Below are positions 42,584 through 54,747 of a stretch of 64,000 bases of DNA, one piece after another. The translations under genes and the position numbers were made by a program. The stretch is from positions 1-64,000 of the forward strand of contig JANNVX010000075.1 in assembly GCA_031414595.1 (NCBI GenBank), in the 5' to 3' direction. The notes under the pieces were generated by a model. It was not told where the DNA came from, searched no databases, and saw only the letters and a list, made by a program, of their open reading frames with translations. The first letter of the stretch is position 1. The number at the start of each line of letters is the position of its first letter. Source of the DNA: Deinococcales bacterium (GTDB taxonomy: Bacteria > Deinococcota > Deinococci > Deinococcales > JAAFIG01).

Positions 42584-42775
42584 ATGAACACAGCCATTAG
42601 AAATGAGGTTCTGCACGTCGTAGAGCAACTACCAGAAGATGCCGATATGGAACTTTTGATTCAAGCCTTAAAAGTCCGACTTAACATTACTCGGGGCATC
42701 AAAGACTTAGACGAAGGGCGCACAGTCACATCACCAGAAATCCTAGGGCATTTTCGAGCCAAATTATCTTCATGA
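42584..42775 (+). CDS. Antitoxin (63 aa)
   Basis: LPEDA..I.RG.KDL.EGR pattern; ATGA overlap with the toxin. Confidence 0.8.
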   Translation: MNTAIRNEVLHVVEQLPEDADMELLIQALKVRLNITRGIKDLDEGRTVTSPEILGHFRAKLSS

Positions 42776-43065
42776 AAGTGATTTGGTCATTACAAGCCAA
42801 ACTTGATTTAGACGAAATTTATGCTTTTCTCGAGTACAACTCGCCGCGTAAAGCCTTTGAAACCATTAACCGCATTGTGCTGGCGGCTGACGCACTTGGC
42901 GATTTCCCACTGATGGGCAGTGCTGTAGAAGATTCACACCACCAAGACTTGCGTTCATTACTCGAGAAACCATACCGAATTTATTACCGTGCCAAAGAAA
43001 GCCATGTTGAAATAGCCAGTGTCGAAGATACAAGACGCGGGTATCAAATGGATTGGTTACGATAA
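42772..43065 (+). CDS. RelE/ParE-family toxin
   Basis: VIWS..A..DLDEI, L.DFP.MG, YRIYY. Confidence 0.88.
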   Translation: MKVIWSLQAKLDLDEIYAFLEYNSPRKAFETINRIVLAADALGDFPLMGSAVEDSHHQDLRSLLEKPYRIYYRAKESHVEIASVEDTRRGYQMDWLR

Positions 43066-43116: not shown

Positions 43117-43533
43117 CTATAATTTCCCACGCGAGAATTTTGCATCCAAAGCTGCGATTATCACCACTTCAAGCTGAGCCGAAAAAGCTGTTGCATCACG
43201 CCGCTTACCATCTTTTAAGTCCAACACAACCAGCACTGTACTATCACCCTGAAATGCCAACAGCACTATTGTATTTTGCTTCTCGAGTTGAAGACTGGTA
43301 ATTTCATGCACAACCAAACCAGTATCTTGAATAACCACAATATATGCGCCTTTTAAGCTCGGGTTAAAACCTTGTACTGCCTCGAGTGCCACGGCTTGGG
43401 TCTCGAGGCGATTGCCTTTCCAAACAGGAATATCACTTGAAGTAAAGTCAATATCATTCAAGTAATCATCGGTAGTGGTAGCTGGAGCGCAAGCGGCAAG
43501 CCAAAGCAAGAGTAAAATAGCAAAACGAATCAT
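43117..43533 (-). CDS. Hypothetical lipoprotein
   Basis: LAAC lipobox; AAGGAG RBS before MIRF. Confidence 0.7.
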   Translation of the reverse strand: MIRFAILLLLWLAACAPATTTDDYLNDIDFTSSDIPVWKGNRLETQAVALEAVQGFNPSLKGAYIVVIQDTGLVVHEITSLQLEKQNTIVLLAFQGDSTVLVVLDLKDGKRRDATAFSAQLEVVIIAALDAKFSRGKL

Positions 43534-43633: not shown

Positions 43634-44911
43634 TCAAGTAACTGTAATTGAAATTATTTGAGATCGTAATGTGTCTTTTTTATCTTTTGCGGAAATCGTG
43701 TATTGCGTAGCCAGCATGGGTTTCGTTGGTTTCCCAGAAATGATACCTGTTTCAGGATCAAAAGATAATCCATCTGATTTTTCTGGTATCATCGTAAACA
43801 CAATTGGTAGAACCAAGTCATTGAGGTTTGAGAAAGTAGGTTGATTTACAGCCACTTCAGACGCGAAAGTAAAATTAGGGATAATTGCAGTTTTTGTGGT
43901 CACAGCATCTGTGATTTTGCGTGTTAAATATGCTCCCTGCCCCAAACCAAAAAGTGCTAGGACTGTTCCATTGACATCTGGCAAAGCGGTTTGACTGATA
44001 AATGGAATGATCTCGAGATGTGCCAAAAATGCAAGAAAATATGTAAAAGCCGCCACCACAGTGACAGCAATCATTTGAAAATCGGTTAAATCAAAAGCAC
44101 CATCATCGCTTGTCCATAATTGATCCCAATCGGCTTTATCCGAATTGGGAATGGCTATATTTGGATTGCGCTCAACTTGTGCTTCTTTGGCAACTCGCGC
44201 TCCAACAAAAACAATCATGCTTAAACCAGAAAGCACCAGTAAATTAGTTGGAATATCGATTCCAAGAGCATACCGAAAATGCGTATACATCACTCTAAAA
44301 ATCAGTACGGTCAGCAGTGTTGTTAGGAGCATAAAAAACCAGATGGCAATTTGGGTTTGTGAATTGCTCATTCTGCCGTCTTTACCAGTACAGAGTTGTC
44401 TAAAACCAGACTTAAATAAACCATGAAGCAAAAGAATAAGTGAAACCATCACTAAAATTGTGACTAAAACAGGAGACCAAATCCGACTTGGCTTTATTTG
44501 GCGTATTGCCAGACTTTTAAGGGTTTTTCCGTCCAGTGCTAACTGTGCATAGACTTCATCACCAATGCTGATTCCACTGCTTAAAGCCTTTGCACCTTCA
44601 AAGCTAATGCGTGGCTCTGTGATGTCTTTTGGACTATCCAATTCAGACAGGGTACAGCTGCGACGAATAGTAATTCTATCTGTGTTTTCTAAAGGGACTT
44701 CAGTCACAACACCACGTAAAAAAAGTGATTTACCTGTGGGACCATACGCACCAAGTTCGCTGTATTGCACTTCTTTTGGGTCAACACAGGTTTTTAATTC
44801 TGAACCAAAAAAACCTTCGCCACCAATCGCGTTGGCATTAAAGCGAGCCACAACACCTGCTCCCACAAAAAAAACTGCACTCAAGAAAATATATAACCAA
44901 GTTATTTTCAT
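43634..44911 (-). CDS. Multi-pass membrane protein with C-terminal putative Ig domain
   Basis: N-terminal signal/TM, 5-6 TMs with an internal repeat (SQTQ..W / TDFQM; IP..LLVLSGLS / LP..VLALFGLG), GLSFDPETGIISGKPT. Confidence 0.7.
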   Translation of the reverse strand: MKITWLYIFLSAVFFVGAGVVARFNANAIGGEGFFGSELKTCVDPKEVQYSELGAYGPTGKSLFLRGVVTEVPLENTDRITIRRSCTLSELDSPKDITEPRISFEGAKALSSGISIGDEVYAQLALDGKTLKSLAIRQIKPSRIWSPVLVTILVMVSLILLLHGLFKSGFRQLCTGKDGRMSNSQTQIAIWFFMLLTTLLTVLIFRVMYTHFRYALGIDIPTNLLVLSGLSMIVFVGARVAKEAQVERNPNIAIPNSDKADWDQLWTSDDGAFDLTDFQMIAVTVVAAFTYFLAFLAHLEIIPFISQTALPDVNGTVLALFGLGQGAYLTRKITDAVTTKTAIIPNFTFASEVAVNQPTFSNLNDLVLPIVFTMIPEKSDGLSFDPETGIISGKPTKPMLATQYTISAKDKKDTLRSQIISITVT

Positions 44912-44914
44912 ACA

Positions 44915-45565
44915 TTACTCCTTTGAAGCACCAAAACCACTATTACGTGACCAAAAAGTACGCAGCTGGCTTTCTGTACCATTAAATTTGTCTCTATCAC
45001 AACGTCCGATACCAGTAACTTCATGTGGAGGTTGCCCGACTGCCCCATCTGTGTATTGCCATAAAGTCCAAGTTGTCCAGATTTTTGGAATGAGGGGAGC
45101 TTGGCTATATTGTGCAATCCATAGCCAACATTTGGATAGTTCTGTTTGTTTGGGACTGTTAATTCCAGCTTTTGTCAGAGCTTCTTTGATGGTATGTCCC
45201 GAGTACAAACCGGGGTAACGTCCTGTCAGTGCGTGAATATGATGGACAAAGTGTTCGGCTTCTTCGAGTGTCATATCATGACCCTGCGGATTGCCTTCAA
45301 AGTCCAATACCAAGAGAGTATCAGCACCAGCGATCCGAAGAAAATGCTCGGCTTGTTCAATCGCATTTCCTGCCACGCCGAAGTGATATGCACCAACCAA
45401 TAAATCAGCTTGTAAGGCTTGTCGTCGTCTCGAAAGATAGGTCGGATCAGTATAAATTGTACCTTGGGTGGCTTTTTGGATAACACCCAGAATCCCCGCT
45501 TGCTTTACCTTAGTAAAACTCGAGACTTTATTGTGATGTGAAATGTCTATGACGGCGTTAATCAT
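44915..45565 (-). CDS. GH25 muramidase (lysozyme), no signal peptide
   Basis: IDISHHN, KATQG, GAYHF, LDFE, LWIAQY, WQYT, DRD. Confidence 0.92.
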   Translation of the reverse strand: MINAVIDISHHNKVSSFTKVKQAGILGVIQKATQGTIYTDPTYLSRRRQALQADLLVGAYHFGVAGNAIEQAEHFLRIAGADTLLVLDFEGNPQGHDMTLEEAEHFVHHIHALTGRYPGLYSGHTIKEALTKAGINSPKQTELSKCWLWIAQYSQAPLIPKIWTTWTLWQYTDGAVGQPPHEVTGIGRCDRDKFNGTESQLRTFWSRNSGFGASKE

Positions 45566-45580: not shown

Positions 45581-47407
45581 TCAACTATTCCATTCGTTGT
45601 ACAGATTCCTGAAAGCAATCAAAACACGTCCTTTGACAGAACTACCCCAACTAAAAGGTAAGTTCATTGCTTCTACGTCACCATCAGCAATATCTAATAC
45701 ATCTTGAACAGTGGCACGTTGGGCAATCCCGTTCTCTTCCCAATCCAATTTCACTTCAACGGTTGCTCTCATTGGATATGTGGGAAATGGGTTAGAGCCA
45801 TGGGCGGCTACAAATTTCTCGAGCTTGATGCTAAGGCGGGCGGAATACTTGTTTCCCCAAACAAAGCGCTTAGGCTTAAAGTCTTGTTGGGTTATACCAG
45901 AGTCAAAGAAAATAGTTTCACTGGCATAATCAACTGTACCAAGGCTAGGGTTTGTCGCTGTGCTATCGGAAGCCGAATAACTCATGTGTATTTCTACTCT
46001 GCGGTGGTCTAAGTCTTTGGGCGGGTTTAGTGAAAAAAATAATTTGTTTGTTTGGTTGGCAATGAGTAATTTCTCTTGCTGGTCAGCATATTTAAGGTGG
46101 TTAATAGTTGCTTGAGCATCTATGATGTATGCCCCAACAGGTACATTTTCGATTTCAAAGTCTCCATTAGTATCAGTGAAAGCACTCATACCCTCAAAGA
46201 CCCGAACCATAGCGTTTGCAACAGGTGAATATATGCCGCCGATAAAGCGTTTGACTGTTCCTTGTATCGTTGTTGTTCCCACGAATGGTGTCCAGCGAGA
46301 TATTTTTTGCAAAACAACCATTTGTGGTCGGTGTTGCACAGGCTCAAAATGCCCATAACAACCACCTTGGTCAGGTGAAAACCATTCGAGTATGTTATTT
46401 GGTGAAACAGCGACACCCATACCGGGGTTTTTCCATTTTGTTGTAATGTCTGCCACTGAATCATTGGCAAAAGCATTGACAATCTGATTGGCAACATACT
46501 CATCAATTTGCAGTAGCTTTGCAATAAATGGCACAGCTTTAGCTACTTCAAATTTCAGGTATTCATGTAGCCAATTTGCTGCTTTTGCTCGGTTTGCAAG
46601 GTTGTAATTGGCTAAGCCATTTTTAGTTGTACCAAGTTTTACGCCAACATCATTTGCCATATGCCAAATAAATGATGAACAGACTGTGGGTAATGAATCT
46701 GATGCCCAACCAAGATTTCTACCTGCTTTTGACAAATTGGCTTTTGTATAGCCATATAAACGATAATGTGCTTTGGAAACTTCATTTGGTCTTGCGCCAT
46801 ACTGCAAAGCCAAGTCTGCAACTTTATGAAGTGTTAAGCGAACAGTTTTGTCTTGCTGTGGTGGTGGTTTTACCACAAGTGGAGGAGTGATAATAATTTT
46901 TTCACCGTTTGTTGTTGCCACCGCGATTGCCATGTGGTATTGCGTGACACCTGCAATGGTGTAATCCTTCTTGCCATCATTAAAGGGTTCACCGTGAATT
47001 GCCTCATACATATTTTGGCGCACTGTACCAGGCCACATGTATTTTAAGTCAAAATCAGGAAGTCTTTGTGTAGAAGTGTCAAGCTGGTCTGTGAGTCGTT
47101 CAACACTGGCGGTACTGTGAACAATTTCCGAAAAGTCTTTGGTAACTAAGCATGAATGTCCATATGTTTGTGGTGGCAGTAATTGACGGAGTAACTGTCC
47201 AATGACATCCATTGCGCCGGGCATTAGTAAAACATCGCCCTTGCGAGCATTAAGAATACACTCTTTCAAAAGAACTTGTTTTAGAGGTTCATCAAGAGTA
47301 ATCTGAGGCGAGAGTTTGGCTTGTTTGGCAAGCATCCACTCTTCGCTGGTAATTGTTTCACGGTCACAGACTTCACCTTTTGCTACATAGTTTGAAATGT
47401 TTAACAT
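45581..47407 (-). CDS. Permuted papain-like (YiiX/YebB-type NlpC/P60) enzyme with carboxypeptidase-regulatory-like and C-terminal beta domains
   Basis: KGDVLL..YGHSCL followed later by VCSSFIW and VSP..I (His before Cys); GTV..PVANAMV..TDTNGDFEIENVPVGAY; GAGG RBS before MLNIS. Confidence 0.65.
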   Translation of the reverse strand: MLNISNYVAKGEVCDRETITSEEWMLAKQAKLSPQITLDEPLKQVLLKECILNARKGDVLLMPGAMDVIGQLLRQLLPPQTYGHSCLVTKDFSEIVHSTASVERLTDQLDTSTQRLPDFDLKYMWPGTVRQNMYEAIHGEPFNDGKKDYTIAGVTQYHMAIAVATTNGEKIIITPPLVVKPPPQQDKTVRLTLHKVADLALQYGARPNEVSKAHYRLYGYTKANLSKAGRNLGWASDSLPTVCSSFIWHMANDVGVKLGTTKNGLANYNLANRAKAANWLHEYLKFEVAKAVPFIAKLLQIDEYVANQIVNAFANDSVADITTKWKNPGMGVAVSPNNILEWFSPDQGGCYGHFEPVQHRPQMVVLQKISRWTPFVGTTTIQGTVKRFIGGIYSPVANAMVRVFEGMSAFTDTNGDFEIENVPVGAYIIDAQATINHLKYADQQEKLLIANQTNKLFFSLNPPKDLDHRRVEIHMSYSASDSTATNPSLGTVDYASETIFFDSGITQQDFKPKRFVWGNKYSARLSIKLEKFVAAHGSNPFPTYPMRATVEVKLDWEENGIAQRATVQDVLDIADGDVEAMNLPFSWGSSVKGRVLIAFRNLYNEWNS

Positions 47408-47559
47408 TTTTACCTCGTATTGACAGAATAAATACGCGAATAAGTATCTAACTAACTGATGTGTGTTCTTCATCTGTAAAAGGAATAATATGTGAGTTGA
47501 TTCAATTATAAACCCCCCAAATTAACTCGAGTCAGACGCACCCAAGCTCGAGTGGTTAC

Positions 47560-47595
47560 ACCTTATAAATAGAAGCGTAATCAGACCGTAATCAG
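47560..47595 (-). promoter_or_regulatory. Activator-type promoter 1
   Basis: CTGATTACGGTCTGATTACG-10nt-TAAGGT. Confidence 0.7.
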
Positions 47596-47625
47596 GTGAA
47601 TACTTTTATCGTTTTGTTTCAAATA

Positions 47626-48126
47626 TCACATTTGATCAGCTTCGTGTGCCAAAGAATTACTCGCAAAAGCAAGCCCAACTGCTAAGACAGCAGCAAATAC
47701 TGTGCGGACTGTTGAATCAAAATTTCCAACAACGGCATCAAGGGCGGTTGGTCGTTGCAACATCATCCAAGCAACAAAAGCAAATGGTGGAATAAAAACC
47801 CTACCCAAGTCTAACTTATTCCATGTTTTATTCAAGACCCTAGGAATGACATACATCAGTACAGTTAGGACAAGGCAAGACCAGAACACTAATTGCAGTG
47901 CGCCAAAATTTTCATTTGCAATTGTCGTTGTCTTTGTACCGTCTATTGTTTTCGTTGTTGTTGTGAATGCAATCGCAAATGCGTGGAGTCCCAAGATTTC
48001 GCTTGGGACAAGCGCTGCCAAGGTATCCATATAGGTTTTAATCCCGGGTGGCTCTGTGTCTTGACTTTTTTGCGGAGCAGAGTCTTCTCGTTTTTTGGAA
48101 AGTAGCGCGTATAAAATCGTACTCAT
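47626..48126 (-). CDS. Hypothetical 4-TM membrane protein
   Basis: YMDTLAALVPSEILGL motif then four hydrophobic helices; AAGGAG RBS before MSTILY. Confidence 0.75.
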   Translation of the reverse strand: MSTILYALLSKKREDSAPQKSQDTEPPGIKTYMDTLAALVPSEILGLHAFAIAFTTTTKTIDGTKTTTIANENFGALQLVFWSCLVLTVLMYVIPRVLNKTWNKLDLGRVFIPPFAFVAWMMLQRPTALDAVVGNFDSTVRTVFAAVLAVGLAFASNSLAHEADQM

Positions 48127-48154
48127 ATTTTCTCCTTTGTGGTCTCTCGAGGGC

Positions 48155-48190
48155 AGCTTATAAACCAAACCGTAAACAAACCGTAAACAC
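48155..48190 (-). promoter_or_regulatory. Activator-type promoter 2
   Basis: GTGTTTACGGTTTGTTTACG-10nt-TAAGCT. Confidence 0.75.
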
Positions 48191-48414
48191 CCCAAAACTG
48201 CCCATGCTGCAATGTTTTCAGACAGGGGTTGAATTTGGGTTGAAAAAAAGCTGAAAAAAATTCAGGCAAAAATAAATTTGTCCTAGGCGCAAATAATCTG
48301 TTTGGCTGTACCAACCACAGCCCAAGCTCGAGCCAAAGCGTCAGGCTCGAGTTTCTACGGACACAGTGATAAGAAATGCTTGTGAAATGACCTTGAGACG
48401 ACTATAATTTCGCC

Positions 48415-48636
48415 ATGAATACTGTCCTTGAGTTGCCTAAAGAACTTGAAGTCGCACTGATGGACATTGCCACTCGAGAGAACCGTACAGTCAATGAATT
48501 GGTTCAAGCTGCCTTACTCAGTTTTGCCCAAGAACACTCAAAACCAGTATCAAGTTGGTTAGGCATTGCCGAAGGCAGCCCAGATTTATCACAGCGCGTG
48601 GATGAGCTTTTATTCCAAGATAGCTTAAGACCGTGA
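48415..48636 (+). CDS. CopG/RHH-type antitoxin (orphan)
   Basis: Similar layout to the 38461 antitoxin (SWLG..DLSQRVDELL); TATAAT 6 nt upstream. Confidence 0.75.
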   Translation: MNTVLELPKELEVALMDIATRENRTVNELVQAALLSFAQEHSKPVSSWLGIAEGSPDLSQRVDELLFQDSLRP

Positions 48637-48665
48637 ATCTTAAAAATGCGATTCTGGCGGACACT
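48633..48665 (+). pseudogene. Remnant 5' end of a vapC toxin
   Basis: GTGA overlap, VNLKNAILADT matches the PIN first motif, then similarity ends. Confidence 0.5.
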
Positions 48666-48686
48666 CAGTCTTACTTTTGGGGAAAC

Positions 48687-49088
48687 CTACTGGTCTTCAG
48701 AGATGACTACCAAGCCTTCGAGAAAATCAAAATGTTTTTTGTTGTGTGTCACAAGTGGAATCTCTAAAACTAAAGCCGTGGCTGCAATCCATGCGTCGGC
48801 TAGGTCTAGCACAAAGCCTTTTTGTCTGGCTTGTACCCGAATCTCGGCGCATTTGGTGCAAATTAGATCAGTGGTTTGGACAACTCGAAAGGATTCAAAC
48901 AATACCTCGAGTTGTGAAATTCGTACTTTTCCCCACTTGGCTTTGAATGCACCGTAACGCAGTTCTTCTACTGTCTGAGCGGCTGTAAAAAGCATTTGTC
49001 CTTGTAGTTTGGCTTTGTATATAACCCCTAAGGTATGTCGGTTAAAAATATAACTGATCACATTTGTATCTACGACAACTGGGTTCAT
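48687..49088 (-). CDS. PIN-domain (VapC) toxin
   Basis: VVDTNVIS, EEL.YG, DAWIAATAL, LVTHN..HF. Confidence 0.92.
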   Translation of the reverse strand: MNPVVVDTNVISYIFNRHTLGVIYKAKLQGQMLFTAAQTVEELRYGAFKAKWGKVRISQLEVLFESFRVVQTTDLICTKCAEIRVQARQKGFVLDLADAWIAATALVLEIPLVTHNKKHFDFLEGLVVISEDQ

Positions 49089-49318
49089 GCGATTGAAGTT
49101 TGTTCGGCAACGATTTTTTCACGGTACTTTTCAAATTCAAGTCGTTCAAGCCGCTCAAGTTCAAGTTCAACCATGATTGCTTGATTATTGATTTTTTCTT
49201 CGGTTGTCCATTCTGGAATGAATTGCTCAAGTTCTGCCCAATTTACGGGTTTAAGACCGTGTAGCAGTTCCTTAAGTAAAGGACTGAATGGTTTTTTGGT
49301 TTGTTCTTGGTATTCCAT
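49085..49318 (-). CDS. Probable antitoxin
   Basis: Small acidic ORF with ATGA overlap onto the PIN gene. Confidence 0.65.
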   Translation of the reverse strand: MEYQEQTKKPFSPLLKELLHGLKPVNWAELEQFIPEWTTEEKINNQAIMVELELERLERLEFEKYREKIVAEQTSIA

Positions 49319-49372
49319 AGCCAGATTCTAGCAGAACCCCCGCCTAATCCCAAACACGCTATAATCAGCCGC

Positions 49373-52192
49373 GTGTACCTGAAAACACTGGGAGGACTGC
49401 GACTCGAGGGGAGTGCTTTGACCCGCCCTAAGCCATTGGCGCTGCTGGCATACCTTGCGCTCGAGGGTCTTAAACCCCGTGGTCATGTGCGTGATTTTTT
49501 TTGGGGCGCTTCGGGCGACGCGGCGACGAATTTGCGAATGGCATTGAAGCAATTGCGAACAGCAGGGGCGTTGCTCGAGAAATCAGATTCGCTTTTGTGT
49601 CTTGTGCCTTCGGATGCTACAGATTTACTCAAAGCGCTTGATGCAGGACATGACCAAGAAGCTACTGTCTTGTATACGGGTACTTTTTTGCATGGCTTGG
49701 ATTTGGGCATTCCCGAATTTGAAGAATGGACTTTGACCACTGGCGAATACCTTGCTGCACGGGTTTCCTTGGCGCATTTGCGACTGTCCGAAGCAGCGTT
49801 ACTTAAAAAAGATTTGGGTCTGGCAACTCGAGAAGCCGAAGCTGCTTATAGTGTTGAAGGCAATTCGACTTTAGAACCCGATGTGCTGCTGCGGGTATTA
49901 CGGGTGCTTGAATTGTGTCACGCCGATTTAGCGGTGCTGGTGCGCCGAGAAGCCCTAGAATTGGGTTTGACGATTCCCAATGTTAAGCCTTTGGCGAATC
50001 CCAGTCCGTTACCTGTGCCGCTTCACCGATTTATGCAGCGTGTCGAACAAACCGTGTTGCTAGAGTATTTACAAGACAACCGTTTAATCACGATTGTTGG
50101 TTATGGTGGGGCTGGTAAATCCAGTTTAGCCCTCGAGGTGGCACGGGTGGTGCAAACCAATTTGGCTGTTTTTTTTGTGCCGCTCGAAGCAGTTTTGGAT
50201 AGTGCTGGAATTGCCTCAGTCTGCCTTCGGGTCATGGGCGAAACAGACATCAAACCAAATTCGTTCGAGCAATTAAAACAACGCATTGGACAAGAAAAAA
50301 CCTTGTTGGTACTGGATAACTTTGAGCATCTGCTCGAGTTCGCGCCGTCCGTACTGGAATTACTGACCGCTTGTTCGGCTTTGCAAGTGCTTGTCACCAG
50401 TCGGGAGCGTCTGCATATCCTTGGGGAAACAGTGCTACCACTTTCGGGTTTTGATTCGGATGCCGTTGCCCTCGAGTTCTTTGTTTTTTGTGCTTTGCGT
50501 TCTGGGGTTAAAATAAAAACCTCTGAGGTTACTGCCCTACAAATCTGTACTTTACTCGAGCGGTACCCATTGGCGCTTGAATTGGCAGCCGCCCTGACAC
50601 CTATTTTATCGCTACCAGAGATGTTAAGTGCCTTACAAGAACACTTGGATATTCTGGGTGCAACCCCTTGGCAAGCAGGGCGACATAACGGCATGAGGGC
50701 GGTATTTAACTGGTCGTGGTCATTGCTGACCAATCCACAACGCTTTGCACTGGCGCGATTAGCGGTTTTTAAGGATGGTTTTGCCAGAGCCGCCGCGCTG
50801 AGCGTCATAGACAGCAATTTAACCATGTTGGTCGCCTTACTGCAAAAATCCTTGGTACAAAACCAGCACAACGGGCGGTACAGGCTGCATCCACTGATTG
50901 CCCAGTATTGCCTAGAAGCCCTAGAAGCCATCCCGCTCGAGACGAGTAAAGCAAGAAGCCACCATGCCCAGTTTTTTCTCAATTGGCTCGAGCTAAACGC
51001 CGCCGATGTTCGCAGTGACAAAGCGGGTGGTGTATTAAGTGCTTTTGAGACTGACTTGGAAAATTGTAAAAGTGCATGGCTGTGGTTGTGCGCTAATCCA
51101 GATGCAGCGCGGTTTGAACGATTACAAGACATGGTTTTATTATTTGATGCGAGGGCGAGGTTTACCGAAGGGATACAGCTTTTTGAAACAGCCATTGATA
51201 CCCTCGAGCCGAAGATGGCATTAAGTCAAAGCGCAGGATCGAGCGATGAAACTTTGCTACGGGCAATGGCAGTGTTACACATCAATGCGGCTTGGTTGAA
51301 TACACGAGTAGATCAGAATATGGCAGTTTTAGAACACGCGACTCGAGCCGACGAAATTTTGCAACATGTAGATTCACCAATGCTTAGGATAAAGACGTTG
51401 ACAGTGTTGGGTAATACCAGTCGTAATCTCGGACAATTTCAAAAAGCGCTCGAGTATTTTCAGCAATCTTTGGTGTTGGCAAGACAATTAAATGCAGACT
51501 ATAGAATTGCCTTAGCTCTATCAAATATTGGCAATAGCTTATTGACTCTAGGGGAGTATGAATTTGCCTTAAATCATTTCCAAGAGGCGCACGATATTTT
51601 TTTAACACACCAAGATGTCATCAATGCAAATGCAACCACTACAAGTGTTATTCATCTTTTTATTTTTTGCTTGGATAAAGACCCAAACGAAATCCATGAT
51701 GTATTACTTGGTGAAATCTCAAAAGCCGAGCATTATGGACAAGTGACTCAACTTTTCACACTAAAGACATATCTTATTTTTACCTATTCTAACTTGGGGT
51801 ATTTTCACCAAGCTGAACAGCTTTGTGCTTCCATGCAAAAAATTAAGGTAGACCACCAAGCGCTAGATTTGTTTTCGATTGCCTCTGCTTTGATTGATGC
51901 AGGTTGCAATCGCTTTGAGGCTGCCGAATTACAACTTTTGAACATAGCGCAATTAAATCTGGCAAAAAATGCACCCAATCTTGTCCATCAGGCAATGTAT
52001 CATTACGCTCAGATTACTTTACAACAGCAACATTTTATCAAAACAGCTAATGCAATTCACTACTTACTGAATCAACAAAATTTAGTGAAATGGGTAGAAA
52101 AGAAAGCTCGAGCCTTAGCGCAACAACCTAAAATTCTAGGCTTAATTCAAGACCCAAATCTCGAGCTTTCGTTACCGCAACTAGGCTATTAA
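49373..52192 (+). CDS. AfsR/SARP-like regulator: wHTH + BTAD + STAND-type NTPase + TPR
   Basis: LKTLGGL..KPLALLAYLALEG..NLR.AL..LR; Y.G.FL.GL...EFEEW; GYGGAGKS; LVLDNFEHL; VTSRE; PLALELAA; RLHPLI; TPRs; leaderless GTG after TATAAT. Confidence 0.85.
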   Translation: MYLKTLGGLRLEGSALTRPKPLALLAYLALEGLKPRGHVRDFFWGASGDAATNLRMALKQLRTAGALLEKSDSLLCLVPSDATDLLKALDAGHDQEATVLYTGTFLHGLDLGIPEFEEWTLTTGEYLAARVSLAHLRLSEAALLKKDLGLATREAEAAYSVEGNSTLEPDVLLRVLRVLELCHADLAVLVRREALELGLTIPNVKPLANPSPLPVPLHRFMQRVEQTVLLEYLQDNRLITIVGYGGAGKSSLALEVARVVQTNLAVFFVPLEAVLDSAGIASVCLRVMGETDIKPNSFEQLKQRIGQEKTLLVLDNFEHLLEFAPSVLELLTACSALQVLVTSRERLHILGETVLPLSGFDSDAVALEFFVFCALRSGVKIKTSEVTALQICTLLERYPLALELAAALTPILSLPEMLSALQEHLDILGATPWQAGRHNGMRAVFNWSWSLLTNPQRFALARLAVFKDGFARAAALSVIDSNLTMLVALLQKSLVQNQHNGRYRLHPLIAQYCLEALEAIPLETSKARSHHAQFFLNWLELNAADVRSDKAGGVLSAFETDLENCKSAWLWLCANPDAARFERLQDMVLLFDARARFTEGIQLFETAIDTLEPKMALSQSAGSSDETLLRAMAVLHINAAWLNTRVDQNMAVLEHATRADEILQHVDSPMLRIKTLTVLGNTSRNLGQFQKALEYFQQSLVLARQLNADYRIALALSNIGNSLLTLGEYEFALNHFQEAHDIFLTHQDVINANATTTSVIHLFIFCLDKDPNEIHDVLLGEISKAEHYGQVTQLFTLKTYLIFTYSNLGYFHQAEQLCASMQKIKVDHQALDLFSIASALIDAGCNRFEAAELQLLNIAQLNLAKNAPNLVHQAMYHYAQITLQQQHFIKTANAIHYLLNQQNLVKWVEKKARALAQQPKILGLIQDPNLELSLPQLGY

Positions 52193-52737
52193 GGACCAAA
52201 ACCAGGTGGAGGAGTCTGTTTAGTGGGTTTGTCGTTATTTGCATCCCAAGGCTCGGGTTCTTCAAGAGTATCTGGGTCTGGTATCATTGGTACTTCTGGT
52301 AACCTTGTATCTTCATCAATAAACCTAAGGTTTTCTGGTCTTTCATCAATTTTAATTGGAATGGTTGCCCAAATTCCAGGTAAAGAGCAATCTTTAGCAC
52401 TCAACTCGCCCACAAATTCGTAGATTTGCCATTTGCTATAGCGCCATTGGAATACCCCAGTTTGACTGTGATTTTGCGGGTTAATATCATCGCGGTCAAC
52501 TGGATCAAACAAATCCCTGTCTACACCAGAAAAGATTTCCCTTCCCAATTGAAGCACAGGGAGAAAAGGAAAAAGCACTTTCTGAATCCGTTTATCGCCT
52601 GGCAATTCCATGTAGCTTGGAATGAGCTTCCGCAACAATCGATCATTAAGGTGCAATAAGCAACGATAGACATAAACACGTTCGCCTCCCTTTTCAAGAC
52701 CCAAGTGACCGCTAAAATTGACAAATTTGATACTCAT
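52189..52737 (-). CDS. Hypothetical protein with acidic Pro-rich tail
   Basis: 182-aa ORF with AAGGAGG RBS and its own promoter motif. Confidence 0.7.
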   Translation of the reverse strand: MSIKFVNFSGHLGLEKGGERVYVYRCLLHLNDRLLRKLIPSYMELPGDKRIQKVLFPFLPVLQLGREIFSGVDRDLFDPVDRDDINPQNHSQTGVFQWRYSKWQIYEFVGELSAKDCSLPGIWATIPIKIDERPENLRFIDEDTRLPEVPMIPDPDTLEEPEPWDANNDKPTKQTPPPGFGP

Positions 52738-52776
52738 AAACCCCTCCTTGTCACTACTCTCGAGCAGTGTGCCACT

Positions 52777-52812
52777 AGCTTAGCGCATGGGGCGTAAACA
52801 AACCGTAAACAC
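52777..52812 (-). promoter_or_regulatory. Activator-type promoter 3
   Basis: GTGTTTACGGTTTGTTTACG-10nt-TAAGCT. Confidence 0.75.
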
Positions 52813-52840: not shown

Positions 52841-54085
52841 TCAAGCATTGGGGAAGCCAATACCCACTCGAGCGCCGTGTTTTATATTCTCGGCTCGAGC
52901 CTGCCCGCCGTGAACCTCGGCAATCGCGGCAACGATGGCTAAGCCTAAGCCAGTGCCTGTGCCGCGTTTAACAAAGGGTTCAAAAACCGTGGGGAGCAAA
53001 TCGGGTGCAAAGCCAATACCCGTGTCTACAAGCCAAATCCAAGTTTGTTGGCGGTTGCTTTCTAAAACAAAGTGTTTTGCGCCTCCTCCGTGGTCGTTAG
53101 CATTTTTGACAAGGTTCTCGATTGCCAACTCGAGTAAGTCTCGGTCAGCCCTGATACTGGCGTTACCGATAACTGGCAATTCAAAATTGGCTTCTAAAAA
53201 ATCGCGCAGCACCACCTCTTGTCCGCTGACTTGTCCGCGTCCCTCGAGCCGAGCTAAGGTCAGTAAGCTACCCAAAACCCGTTCAGTCCGCCGTACCGCC
53301 TCGAGTGCCTGAGCCACTGCCAAAGGTTCGTTGGGGTGGCGCTCGAGTACCTCCAAATAATTTCGAGCCGCCGTTAATGGATTGCGTAATTCATGTGAGG
53401 CGTTATAGGCAAAGCGTTTGGCACTTTGTTCTTGCAGTCTGGCTCGAGACAAACTGGTGCGTAAATCCTCGAGTAAGCCGTTGAAGGCATGAACGGCTGG
53501 TTTTAATTCTGGTAGTGGCGGATTGGCAATGGCTTCGAGTTGATTGGCGTTACGACTGGCAATATCGGCAGCAAAACGCTCTAAGGGAATTAAGGAGCGG
53601 CGCACACCTACCGAACCAAACAGCAGCGCGGTGCTTAAGAGCAAAATTGCCCAGAGCCAAATGGTGCTTTGATTGGTGATGGTGAATCCTTCGCTGGGTC
53701 GGACTTCCTCGAGTTGCCCTGCACTAAAACGCAGCAAAGCCGGTTCGCGCCGAGTTTGTAATTGTGCGAGGGTGATTTCCCTGATTGGTGCTTGAGTTGG
53801 GGTACTTTTTGGGGTTGGTACGGCTGGTTCAGCACTGATTTTAGCGGCACTTGCTGGGCTGGTGGTGGCAAAAGGATTGGGGCTATCAGGGACTGGAGCG
53901 CTTGGGATGGCTAAATCGGTCAGTGGTTTTTTAGGCGTTTCAACTGTATTTTGAGTTTGCGGTGTACTTGATACTTTGACAAACTCGAGCGAAGCCGTTT
54001 GACGCAAAGAAAACCAGACCATCATCCCGACCAAAACGGCAGCCAGTGGCGCAAGCCAGAACAGTAAACGCAACCGCAAGGTCAT
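52841..54085 (-). CDS. Sensor histidine kinase
   Basis: Two TMs, HAMP, ASHELRNPL, ENLVKNA, DTGIG, GTGLGL. Confidence 0.93.
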   Translation of the reverse strand: MTLRLRLLFWLAPLAAVLVGMMVWFSLRQTASLEFVKVSSTPQTQNTVETPKKPLTDLAIPSAPVPDSPNPFATTSPASAAKISAEPAVPTPKSTPTQAPIREITLAQLQTRREPALLRFSAGQLEEVRPSEGFTITNQSTIWLWAILLLSTALLFGSVGVRRSLIPLERFAADIASRNANQLEAIANPPLPELKPAVHAFNGLLEDLRTSLSRARLQEQSAKRFAYNASHELRNPLTAARNYLEVLERHPNEPLAVAQALEAVRRTERVLGSLLTLARLEGRGQVSGQEVVLRDFLEANFELPVIGNASIRADRDLLELAIENLVKNANDHGGGAKHFVLESNRQQTWIWLVDTGIGFAPDLLPTVFEPFVKRGTGTGLGLAIVAAIAEVHGGQARAENIKHGARVGIGFPNA

Positions 54086-54747
54086 GAGGTCGCCCCGTTC
54101 ATTCGCAGCGCATAACCGACACCGCGCACCGTTTGAATCAGGTTTGGTGTACCAAGGCTACGACGCAGCGCCGCAACCAAGGCATCTAAGGTGTTGGGGT
54201 CTACTTCTTGCCCCCAAACGGCTCGCATTAAAGATTCTCTGGCTAAGACCCTTTGCGGATGTTCAAAAAGCACTTGGAGCAAACGAAAACCCTTAGGTGT
54301 AACCTCGAGTAATTGTCCACCGCGCCGAGCTTCGAGGGTCACAAAGTCCAGTACCACATCGGCAAAATGACTGCGAATCACTTCAGTTTTACTGCGCCGC
54401 AACAGGGCTTCGATGCGGGCTAGAATCTCGGATAAACTGTACGGCTTAACCACATAATCATCTGCGCCAGCTTTTAAGCCGCGCACCTTGGCACTGACTT
54501 CATCTAGGGCAGTCAGCATCAATACTGGCACAACTGAACGCGCCCTGATATGCTCGAGAACCCCAAAACCATCCATGCCGGGCAGTACAATATCGAGCAG
54601 CACCACATCAGGCAGCATCTCGAGCAGTTTTAAGCCAACTGCCCCATTCTCGGCTTCTAGCACTTCACAACCCTCGAGCCGTAAGCCCAAAGCCAGCGAT
54701 GCGCGAACCGCCACATCATCTTCAATCAATAAAACCCGTGCTTTCAT
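54082..54747 (-). CDS. OmpR-family response regulator
   Basis: IEDD, LLDIVLP, GADDYVVKP, IQTVRGVGY. Confidence 0.95.
   Translation of the reverse strand: MKARVLLIEDDVAVRASLALGLRLEGCEVLEAENGAVGLKLLEMLPDVVLLDIVLPGMDGFGVLEHIRARSVVPVLMLTALDEVSAKVRGLKAGADDYVVKPYSLSEILARIEALLRRSKTEVIRSHFADVVLDFVTLEARRGGQLLEVTPKGFRLLQVLFEHPQRVLARESLMRAVWGQEVDPNTLDALVAALRRSLGTPNLIQTVRGVGYALRMNGATS

Follow-up and report, generated by a model that had tools for sequence, protein, structure and literature searches.

The locus and its three look-alike promoters

The stretch of DNA analysed here, called the window below, comprises 64,000 nucleotides of contig C75 of the 4.49-Mb genome G000, a member of the Deinococcales with Deinococcus among its relatives (G0xx denotes genomes, Lxxx loci and Cxx contigs of G000). 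DNA contigs that are possibly its source cover the locus without a break. It carries the gene of a regulator that combines a predicted winged helix-turn-helix (wHTH), a putative divergent BTAD, a STAND NTPase and tetratricopeptide repeats (TPR), and this gene meets tail to tail that of a 182-aa partner protein ending in Gly-Pro. Three promoters of common layout, A, B and C, precede the partner gene, a 166-aa membrane protein gene and an operon with a GH25 lysozyme, respectively (Table 1). We propose that the promoters carry SARP-type operators, read by AfsR-like STAND factors of this family, and that the partner's tail docks in the TPR part of the adjacent factor.

As the earlier note on this DNA had described, all three minus-strand sites fit TGWTTACG-N3-TGWTTACG-N10-TAAG(C/G)T exactly, with upstream ends one base shorter than given there, and the 20 bases common to the sites at 52812 and 48190 can be read directly in the sequence. 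With up to two mismatches allowed, the repeat occurs three times in the window against 0.16 expected, and 0 of 100 shuffles gave three. No sigma-70 -35/-10 pair was called at any of the three sites; their layout is that of SARP boxes, in which direct repeats 11 bp apart replace the -35 and the distance to the -10 is fixed. The three look-alike promoters are real as sequence features. Promoter C, with a half-site of the type that belongs to a paralogous factor on contig C30, lies about 150 nt upstream of a start at 47407 led by a ribosome-binding site (RBS), and a promoter A-type site precedes the partner genes of G003 and G005 too. The promoters change cargo, a near-identical copy of the promoter B-RBS unit heading an Ig-like lipoprotein gene in G001, while G005 diverges just past promoter C.

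The CTCGAG downstream of each -10 box, which had been seen as a further shared element, is present 12, 3 and 7 nt past the hexamers of A, B and C, but is weak evidence because no hexamer is commoner in G000: the genome has 5.2 of them per kb and the window 305 in all, and a 10-nt window holds one with a chance of about 5%. As a genome-wide repeat it was rejected as a part of the operator. As a separate observation, CTCGAG stands 3-12 nt past the -10 in 8/8 TGTTTACG promoters of the genus (three offset lineages; three in the window plus L021, L024, L025, L028 and L031) versus 1/13 TGATTACG promoters, and the likeness of G005 to promoter C stops inside CTCGAG. This pattern may reflect ancestry, methylation control or a cargo-swap point. 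G000 strongly avoids GGCC (153 versus 20,304 expected), GATC, CCGG and GGWCC.

Table 1. Positions of the regulator, its partner, the promoters and the surrounding genes in the window
Feature	Position	Strand	Remarks
Promoter A, partner gene	52777..52811	-	TGTTTACG x2, period 11, 10 nt, TAAGCT
Promoter B, 166-aa membrane gene	48155..48189	-	TGTTTACG x2, 10 nt, TAAGCT
Promoter C, 608-aa/GH25/membrane operon	47560..47594	-	TGATTACG x2, 10 nt, TAAGGT
CTCGAG copies after -10 boxes	52759-52764, 48146-48151, 47547-47552
wHTH-(divergent BTAD)-STAND NTPase-TPR factor	49373..52192	+	GTG start at 49373, 939 aa; the open frame reaches back to 49301
Predicted recognition helix R55-T63	49535..49561	+	Helix 50-63 in model; variable positions co-vary with half-site
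Candidate Gly-Pro pocket in TPR	51293..51526	+	W641, R645, K674, position 677, R711, N718
182-aa cytoplasmic partner	52189..52737	-	Remote PF03640 (Lipoprotein_15) relative; 4-nt overlap with STAND stop codon
Partner C-terminal tail PPPGFGP	52192..52212	-	Terminal Gly-Pro invariant
166-aa multi-pass membrane protein (cargo)	47626..48126	-
608-aa cargo protein	45581..47407	-	N-terminal His...Cys pattern and carboxypeptidase-regulatory-like domain
GH25 lysozyme, endolysin-like (cargo)	44915..45565	-	PF01183 E 1e-32; PHROG endolysin E 2e-32
425-aa membrane protein, C-terminal He_PIG Ig domain (cargo)	43634..44911	-
Small lipoprotein-like gene, possible end of cargo operon	43117..43533	-	Lipobox by eye
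PIN toxin gene plus a 77-aa gene upstream of it (toxin-antitoxin pair, passenger in the island)	48687..49318	-	PF01850
Histidine kinase and OmpR regulator	52841..54747	-	Neighbours, tested as rival; not system members

The wHTH-STAND-TPR factor

The architecture wHTH-BTAD-NTPase-TPR, assigned earlier to this gene, stands for the STAND NTPase and the TPR part, both found by Pfam and in an AlphaFold2 model (pLDDT about 90), but the factor's own N-terminus misses the Pfam BTAD. The NTPase is of the NB-ARC type, its Walker A and B motifs being intact and G243-K249, D315 and R344 conserved, and the model of the nucleotide-binding oligomerization domain (NOD) plus the C-terminal TPR sensor matches the folds of Apaf-1 (Z 25.3), PH0952 (6mfv, Z 24.3) and MalT (8bob, Z 22.8). 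A profile of 36 relatives matches AfsR (8k60) with an E-value of 5e-32, from the end of the BTAD through NOD and TPR. The N-terminus is modelled as a sheet, three helices, a wing and then further helices, a wHTH topology, the fold-match lists of the factor being filled by NOD and TPR. PF03704, the Pfam BTAD, is found in 8/32 family members, and hhalign ties the window N-terminus to BTAD-positive paralogs with a probability of 98.4 over 130 columns. Two points weigh against a SARP identity, namely that this N-terminus has no PF03704 match and no sequence match to the SARP domains of AfsR or EmbR. At the latch, described as (F/Y)HD for AfsR in the available text of 10.64898/2026.09.02.748808, the window has LHP, and P stands there in 29/35 partner-linked factors. 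PADLOC returned only a generic TPR match and no known defence system in the window, and the N-terminus of the factor is a DNA-binding-type domain, in place of the cell-killing effector of Avs systems. We predict that it works like a large SARP.

Putative operators across the genome and the helix-operator code

The genome scan for the repeat that had been suggested gave seven exact copies in G000 and none with exactly one mismatch; three lie in the window, two on C30 and two on C54, and the regulon, which had been drawn around the three window promoters, thus reaches past the window. We counted perfect N4-ACG repeats with a YANNNT hexamer behind them at 25 period/spacer settings and found 20 sites at period 11 and spacer 10 and 11 at period 11 and spacer 9; the remaining 23 settings gave 0-4 perfect sites each. 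The repeat-plus-hexamer layout forms a genome-wide class, with TGWTTACG, TGCGACG, TGGAACG, TGTGACG and TGAGACG as half-site families. G000 holds 33 genes with this wHTH-BTAD-type N-terminal domain and 15 OmpR genes. The stretches within 3 kb of the former make up 6.1% of the genome and hold eight of the 20 perfect sites; one of the 20 lies near an OmpR gene.

Beside these sites, the TGCGACG half-site marks a second operator class: at C88:272715-284737 (L152) two STAND genes and a partner gene have three such sites among them, distant sites lie at C56:28315, C67:34861, C86:49596, C86:51282 and C88:191688, and the class is a candidate for a larger regulon. Further half-site families of the same geometry occur at C7:7583, C20:5265, C71:11878 and C75:65049, TGTGACG sites on C37, C64 and C86, and TGAGACG sites on C37, C51 and C93. 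Tandem TTATCCACAG repeats with an 11-bp period at C14:88150-88190 resemble the DnaA boxes of an origin.

Among relatives, motif and regulator occur together: in a search of 61 genomes the exact repeat was present in seven, all of the window's family, and mostly beside STAND genes. When 80 regulator loci were scanned with a generalised repeat pattern, 29 of them held a total of 40 sites, 25 being perfect, versus 0-3 in each of ten Markov controls. The half-site tracks the SARP recognition helix across these relatives, LRMALxQ going with GTTTACG, LR(V/I)xLQQ with GATTACG, LRVALSY with GTTAACR, LRTAxNQ with GTTGACG, LRVALHA with CTTAACG and (L/F)RHLLxR with TGCGACG, which favours the wHTH-(BTAD)-STAND-TPR family over the neighbouring OmpR as their reader. 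According to the available text of PMC10936776, T88 and R92 of the AfsR helix contact bases, and AfsR touches the 11-bp repeats over their first 8 bp. The spacing of the variable helix positions fits R87, T88, S91, R92 and R94 of AfsR from that source when mapped by pattern, and M56 and Q60 of the window factor would correspond to T88 and R92, and K59 to S91.

Several results weigh against this assignment. The generalised pattern was derived from loci inside the tested set of 80, and of the 38 loci chosen for the similarity of their regulator, 11 carry a site and the other 27 do not. The count of regulator-near sites in G000 drops to 5/17 once the three window sites are set aside, and to 3/15 when C30 is left out too (P about 0.06, hand calculation); 12/20 perfect sites lie farther than 3 kb from any such regulator and would be read at a distance. 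The code rests on about eight lineages because kin genomes are not independent, and a further helix, LRVALGQ (L026), also accompanies TGTTTACG. G001 has a TGTTTACG site, although a window-type factor was not found in its 820 contigs, and G004 (57% complete) has a TGATTACG site, although a C30-type factor was not found. As a side observation, L026:6476-7483 (G018) has a TGTTTACG promoter that is divergent from a partner-less STAND gene and heads several very short open reading frames.

The earlier note had placed all three window promoters under the adjacent factor. This stands for the TGTTTACG promoters A and B, which fit the adjacent STAND, while the TGATTACG promoter C fits the C30 paralog. 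The division follows from two genomes that hold one paralog type each: G003, with the window-type factor (76%) only, has three perfect TGTTTACG sites, and G006, with the C30-type factor only, has three TGATTACG-type sites around the factor gene. We predict that promoter C is read by the C30 paralog; cross-reading is possible. A single regulon of the adjacent factor, tolerating the T/A difference, is a possible but tentative alternative: the sites are physically clustered, their half-sites are one base apart, and both site types lie beside the same factor in G005, but the genomes with one paralog type have only the matching half-site, and sites work at a distance elsewhere (C54; C12 of G003).

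The Gly-Pro partner

The 182-aa gene, formerly counted as an orphan output of the regulon, turned out to encode a dedicated partner of the regulator, as seen from the tail-to-tail pairing and the invariant Gly-Pro tail of its homologs. The family ends in PPxxxGP, and a paralog faces the C30 factor. Among 53 homologs in the fetched loci, 47 are complete and non-secreted, four are of a secreted type and two are cut by contig ends. All 47 complete non-secreted homologs end in Gly-Pro, an end carried by about 0.1% of genes by chance, and 46 of them face a STAND gene tail to tail (45 within 1,010 nt), the remaining one running off its contig; the four secreted-type homologs have neither a Gly-Pro end nor a STAND. 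In a blind check, a STAND gene of G012 found by its NOD alone had a convergent partner that ends in Gly-Pro. The three terminal Gly-Pro seen in G000 (four expected) are all in partners, and our A2 profile of the partner matched 44/363 genomes of the order. An avoidance of C-terminal Gly-Pro as 'self' was considered and rejected, Gly-Pro being depleted everywhere in G000 (observed/expected 0.32; GGCC and GGWCC avoidance).

Iterated profiles link the partner to the PF03640 lipoproteins, a transitive link: the window partner itself has no PF03640 match, six homologs carry PF03640, and matches were found at four loci, one of them over the cut-off. By eye and in the model, no signal peptide is seen in the window partner, whose N-terminus is a beta strand without a hydrophobic leader. 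The partner model (pLDDT 77, tail below 50) gave no fold match in the PDB (best Z 2.8), an Atlas structure search gave only leads under 0.8, and locus searches found no partner relatives in metagenome contigs. P0008 and P0012, considered as homologs, were dropped as Cys-rich repeat proteins with chance matches.

At L121, L125 and L151 a small exported peptide with a matching Gly-Pro tail is encoded between the two genes; in the window, none was found between 38 and 58 kb, where the partner is the only frame ending in Gly-Pro. Tandem partner genes, both ending in Gly-Pro, were observed in L141-L144, L146 and L148-L150; the upstream one ends in HGP or QGP, and some loci place that end in a frame of 380-450 aa.

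The candidate TPR pocket and co-swapping of tails and repeats

Partner-linked factors keep W641, R645, K674, N677, R711, Y715 and N718 on successive TPR helices, much more often than other STANDs do. Compared between 35 partner-linked and 64 other STANDs, W641 is present in 35 versus 18, K674 in 28 versus 3, N677 in 33 versus 19, R711 in 32 versus 10 and Y715 in 24 versus 0, numbers to be read with the divergent-repeat alignment and shared ancestry in mind. The window itself departs from this signature at position 677, which is T here and N in 33/35 relatives, a point against the pocket. A STAND of G033 (L185, 6238-9105) has most of the signature and no convergent frame ending in Gly-Pro within 1.2 kb; it may be an exception, or its partner may lie elsewhere in the genome.

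Partner and distal TPR change together. The STANDs of the window and G003 share 75% identity over residues 1-600 and 22% past residue 720, dropping from 62-85% before residue 600 to 17-33% past 660, and their partners share 30%. At the syntenic locus of G005 the promoter region is 92% identical, but the partner (23%) and the distal TPR (26%) are different. L083 and L122, with a common tail, have a distal identity of 55% at an N-terminal identity of 58%, whereas L151 and L083, with different tails, have 17% at 87%; same-tail pairs keep similar distal repeats and different-tail pairs do not, whatever their N-terminal identity. A single origin of the partner-linked STANDs is not supported, since they are spread over several NOD clades and a quick NOD tree needs six changes, at least three of them forced.

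The TPR part can be superposed on human APPBP2 in complex with an RxxGP C-degron (383 aligned residues at rmsd 6.0, Z 21.0). In the APPBP2 pocket, as far as described in the available text of PMC10614623, an Arg and an Asn hold the carboxylate of the terminal Pro. As a point against, the match is not specific, being tied with the TPRs of LGN, Rap and NprR at Z 18-21. A complex prediction of STAND residues 215-939 with the partner scored 0.02 and was used neither for nor against docking.

A model of the switch

In our preferred explanation, to which we give a probability of about 60%, AfsR-like STAND factors read the SARP boxes, the Gly-Pro tail docks in the TPR, and the pair exerts feedback over the cargo. 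What the sequences show are the sites with their statistics, the covariation of helix and operator, the gene pairing, the invariant tail, the conserved pocket residues and the co-swapping; DNA binding, transcription starts, tail-TPR binding, the sign of regulation and the trigger are predicted parts of this model. The boxes would be activator sites of the SARP type, with eight conserved and three free bases, twice, in place of the -35; AfsR-like STAND factors of the Deinococcales would read them, and the adjacent factor would take both TGTTTACG promoters. The resting factor would be kept off by its NOD and TPR, as described for AfsR in the accessible part of PMC10936776. The free PPPGFGP tail of the partner would most likely bind the TPR groove of the factor, the W/K/N/R/N pocket taking the Gly-Pro carboxylate end and the variable distal repeats reading the preceding residues. 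Lock and key would adjoin in the DNA and be swapped as one block because the genes meet tail to tail. The partner gene lies behind a box of the factor in G000, G003, G005 and G006, and the pair would form a feedback loop, since the factor would control its partner through promoter A. Were the partner lost, cleaved or displaced, the NOD may swap ADP for ATP and the SARP domain may turn on the lytic, membrane and secreted cargo. Within this model we lean only slightly, from the logic of the wiring, towards the partner as an anti-activator with negative feedback over the partner as an inducer.

The inducer version, a doubtful minority branch inside this same explanation, takes the tail as hidden until a trigger comes or as freed by a co-regulated protease, the partner then activating the STAND and promoter A giving positive feedback and a bistable or peptide-signalling switch. 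In its favour, exported mini-peptides with matching Gly-Pro tails occur in three related loci, and on C30 and in G006 clostripain and papain genes immediately precede the partner gene and share its box. Against it, the window locus has no exported peptide, and an inducer that is always exposed and itself controlled by the factor would leave the system permanently on.

Terminal proline before a stop codon and SecM-like RAGP motifs stall ribosomes, and the terminal Gly-Pro might be a signal for stalling or degradation, by which the partner would stay unstable, and not a TPR ligand. An invariant Gly-Pro-stop and proline-rich tails agree with this idea; we regard it as quite unlikely, for it leaves the tails of the exported peptides, the partner-specific TPR residues and the co-swapping of tail and distal TPR unexplained.

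Other candidate readers of the boxes

On C54 (46976-56935, L154), a gene for a 443-aa wHTH-like/TPR protein sits between two TGATTACG promoters, with downstream genes for an Ig lipoprotein, an M23 protein, a 275-aa protein of no named family, GH108, RCC1-repeat and Amidase_2 proteins. That the TGATTACG sites belong to this protein appears very unlikely: its gene has sites on both sides in G000 and G005 and one behind it in G004, but G006 (94% complete) has three TGATTACG-type sites and no homolog was found there, no site was seen in 14 kb at the G003 homolog, and the G007 copy has no upstream site.

The OmpR-family response regulator next door (54082-54747), or another of its family, had been named as the main alternative reader. 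In its favour, the half-site resembles what we take to be PhoP-type boxes. PhoP shares the AfsR site, according to the available part of PMC10972967. Across 185,579 species genomes the exact repeat was found at 24 loci, 11 in Deinococcota and 13 scattered; in the latter 13 an OmpR gene lies within 5 kb in three and a SARP-STAND gene in none. Orthologs of the window OmpR, with 62-100% identity across the family, occur in genomes that include G002, G006, G007, G011 and G014-G018 (62-89%), and compared across these relatives the sites do not follow them: five OmpR-kinase loci have no site, and G011, G014, G015 and G016 have the ortholog but no site even at two mismatches. Binding by OmpR is the least probable of the readings, one OmpR being unable to explain the half-sites because these change with the STAND helix.

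Cargo and neighbouring genes

The 166-aa membrane protein had no Pfam, NCBIfam, PHROG or PADLOC match and fell into unnamed Atlas clusters at 0.93. The label 'amidase', given earlier to the 608-aa gene, did not hold, as no PF05708 match was found and only a His...Cys pattern can be seen by eye, which we take, unconfirmed, to resemble that of a permuted papain-fold enzyme. The GH25 lysozyme has no evident signal peptide. Genes behind boxes encode GH25, GH108, Amidase_2, Amidase_3, M23, phospholipase D, clostripain and papain proteins, and also Ig-like lipoproteins and pairs of haem-oxygenase-like and FeeM-like proteins. The cargo suggests an output of lysis or antagonism, within putative operon limits. 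The pair of a haem-oxygenase-like iron enzyme and a FeeM/GNAT-like protein was observed behind a box at C30:10705-12216 and in L027, L028, L030 and L089, and is possibly a small-molecule pathway in the regulon. ParE (42772-43065) and PIN (48415-49318) toxin-antitoxin genes are interspersed in the island, and relatives have other pairs at the same spots.

Comparison with known systems and significance

With AfsR and other large SARPs of the Actinomycetota (SARP-NOD-TPR, afs box), our factors share the domain order, the 8k60 profile match, a target gene adjoining the regulator and, as far as described in PMC10936776, two 11-bp repeats with eight conserved bases in place of the -35. They differ in belonging to another phylum, in having some 33 paralogs, with distinct half-sites, in a single genome, in a BTAD too divergent for Pfam, in HP for HD at the MHD-like latch, in a spacing to the -10 that would be about one base longer, in the dedicated Gly-Pro partner, and in a cargo of lytic and secreted proteins instead of afsS. 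'Deinococc' is absent from the main text of the survey of AfsR-like proteins (10.64898/2026.09.02.748808), the supplements of which could list members of the Deinococcota. The natural effector of AfsR is described as unknown in the available parts of PMC10936776 and 10.64898/2026.09.02.748808.

MalT and PH0952 are likewise STAND transcription factors with a TPR-like sensor, and control by a protein of the own regulon would be a further likeness; the DNA-binding domain is N-terminal and SARP-like here, but C-terminal and LuxR-type in MalT. MalT presumably has MalY, MalK and Aes as protein inhibitors (8bob), whereas the partner here, a polymorphic PF03640 relative dedicated to its factor, would act by its C-terminus on the TPR and not on the NOD. 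The RRNPP systems (Rap-Phr, NprR-NprX, PlcR-PapR, AimR) have the TPR fold (Z 15-19.5), a conserved Asn/Arg/Lys groove and matched, co-varying peptide and receptor alleles in common with ours, some loci of which encode exported peptides; unlike them, the receptor here is an NTPase switch and, at this locus, a folded cytoplasmic protein would supply the ligand with its tail, in place of a peptide that is exported and re-imported, and no exported peptide gene lies beside the receptor in the window between 38 and 58 kb. APPBP2 also has a TPR pocket for a C-terminal Gly-Pro, but is an E3 ligase receptor and needs an Arg at -5, which the tails here lack, the match being one of fold. The secreted PF03640 repeat lipoproteins share sequence-profile homology with the core of the partner, which differs in that it lacks a signal peptide and the CxxxC-WPP motif, carries an extra Gly-Pro tail and always has a STAND alongside. 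A literature search, with most subscription journals outside its reach, found no description of SARP/BTAD/STAND regulators in Deinococcus or of COG4315 in this context, nor, judged by title, a relevant paper on PF03640. What is new beside the known AfsR/SARP systems is a set of operators with a readable code, together with a polymorphic Gly-Pro partner dedicated to the factor.

Factors of the AfsR type occur widely, and here a candidate ligand lies next door, with an invariant end, named candidate pocket residues, matched and mismatched natural alleles and an operator in hand; SARP-STAND switching is therefore directly testable. The helix-to-half-site table predicts regulons of unannotated paralogs and offers orthogonal activator-promoter pairs. 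A wider reading, which we consider rather unlikely, is that of a guard at the level of transcription: the PF03640-like partner would be a fast-changing decoy watched via its Gly-Pro tail by an NLR-type factor, and an attack by a phage, predator or protease on the decoy, or its loss, would free the factor to turn on the lysis and antagonism genes. Sensor and decoy alleles would be exchanged as one DNA block, and the helix-to-operator code would insulate dozens of paralogous circuits in one cell. If true, the system would be a bacterial counterpart of the guard/decoy NLRs of plants, with transcription as its output.

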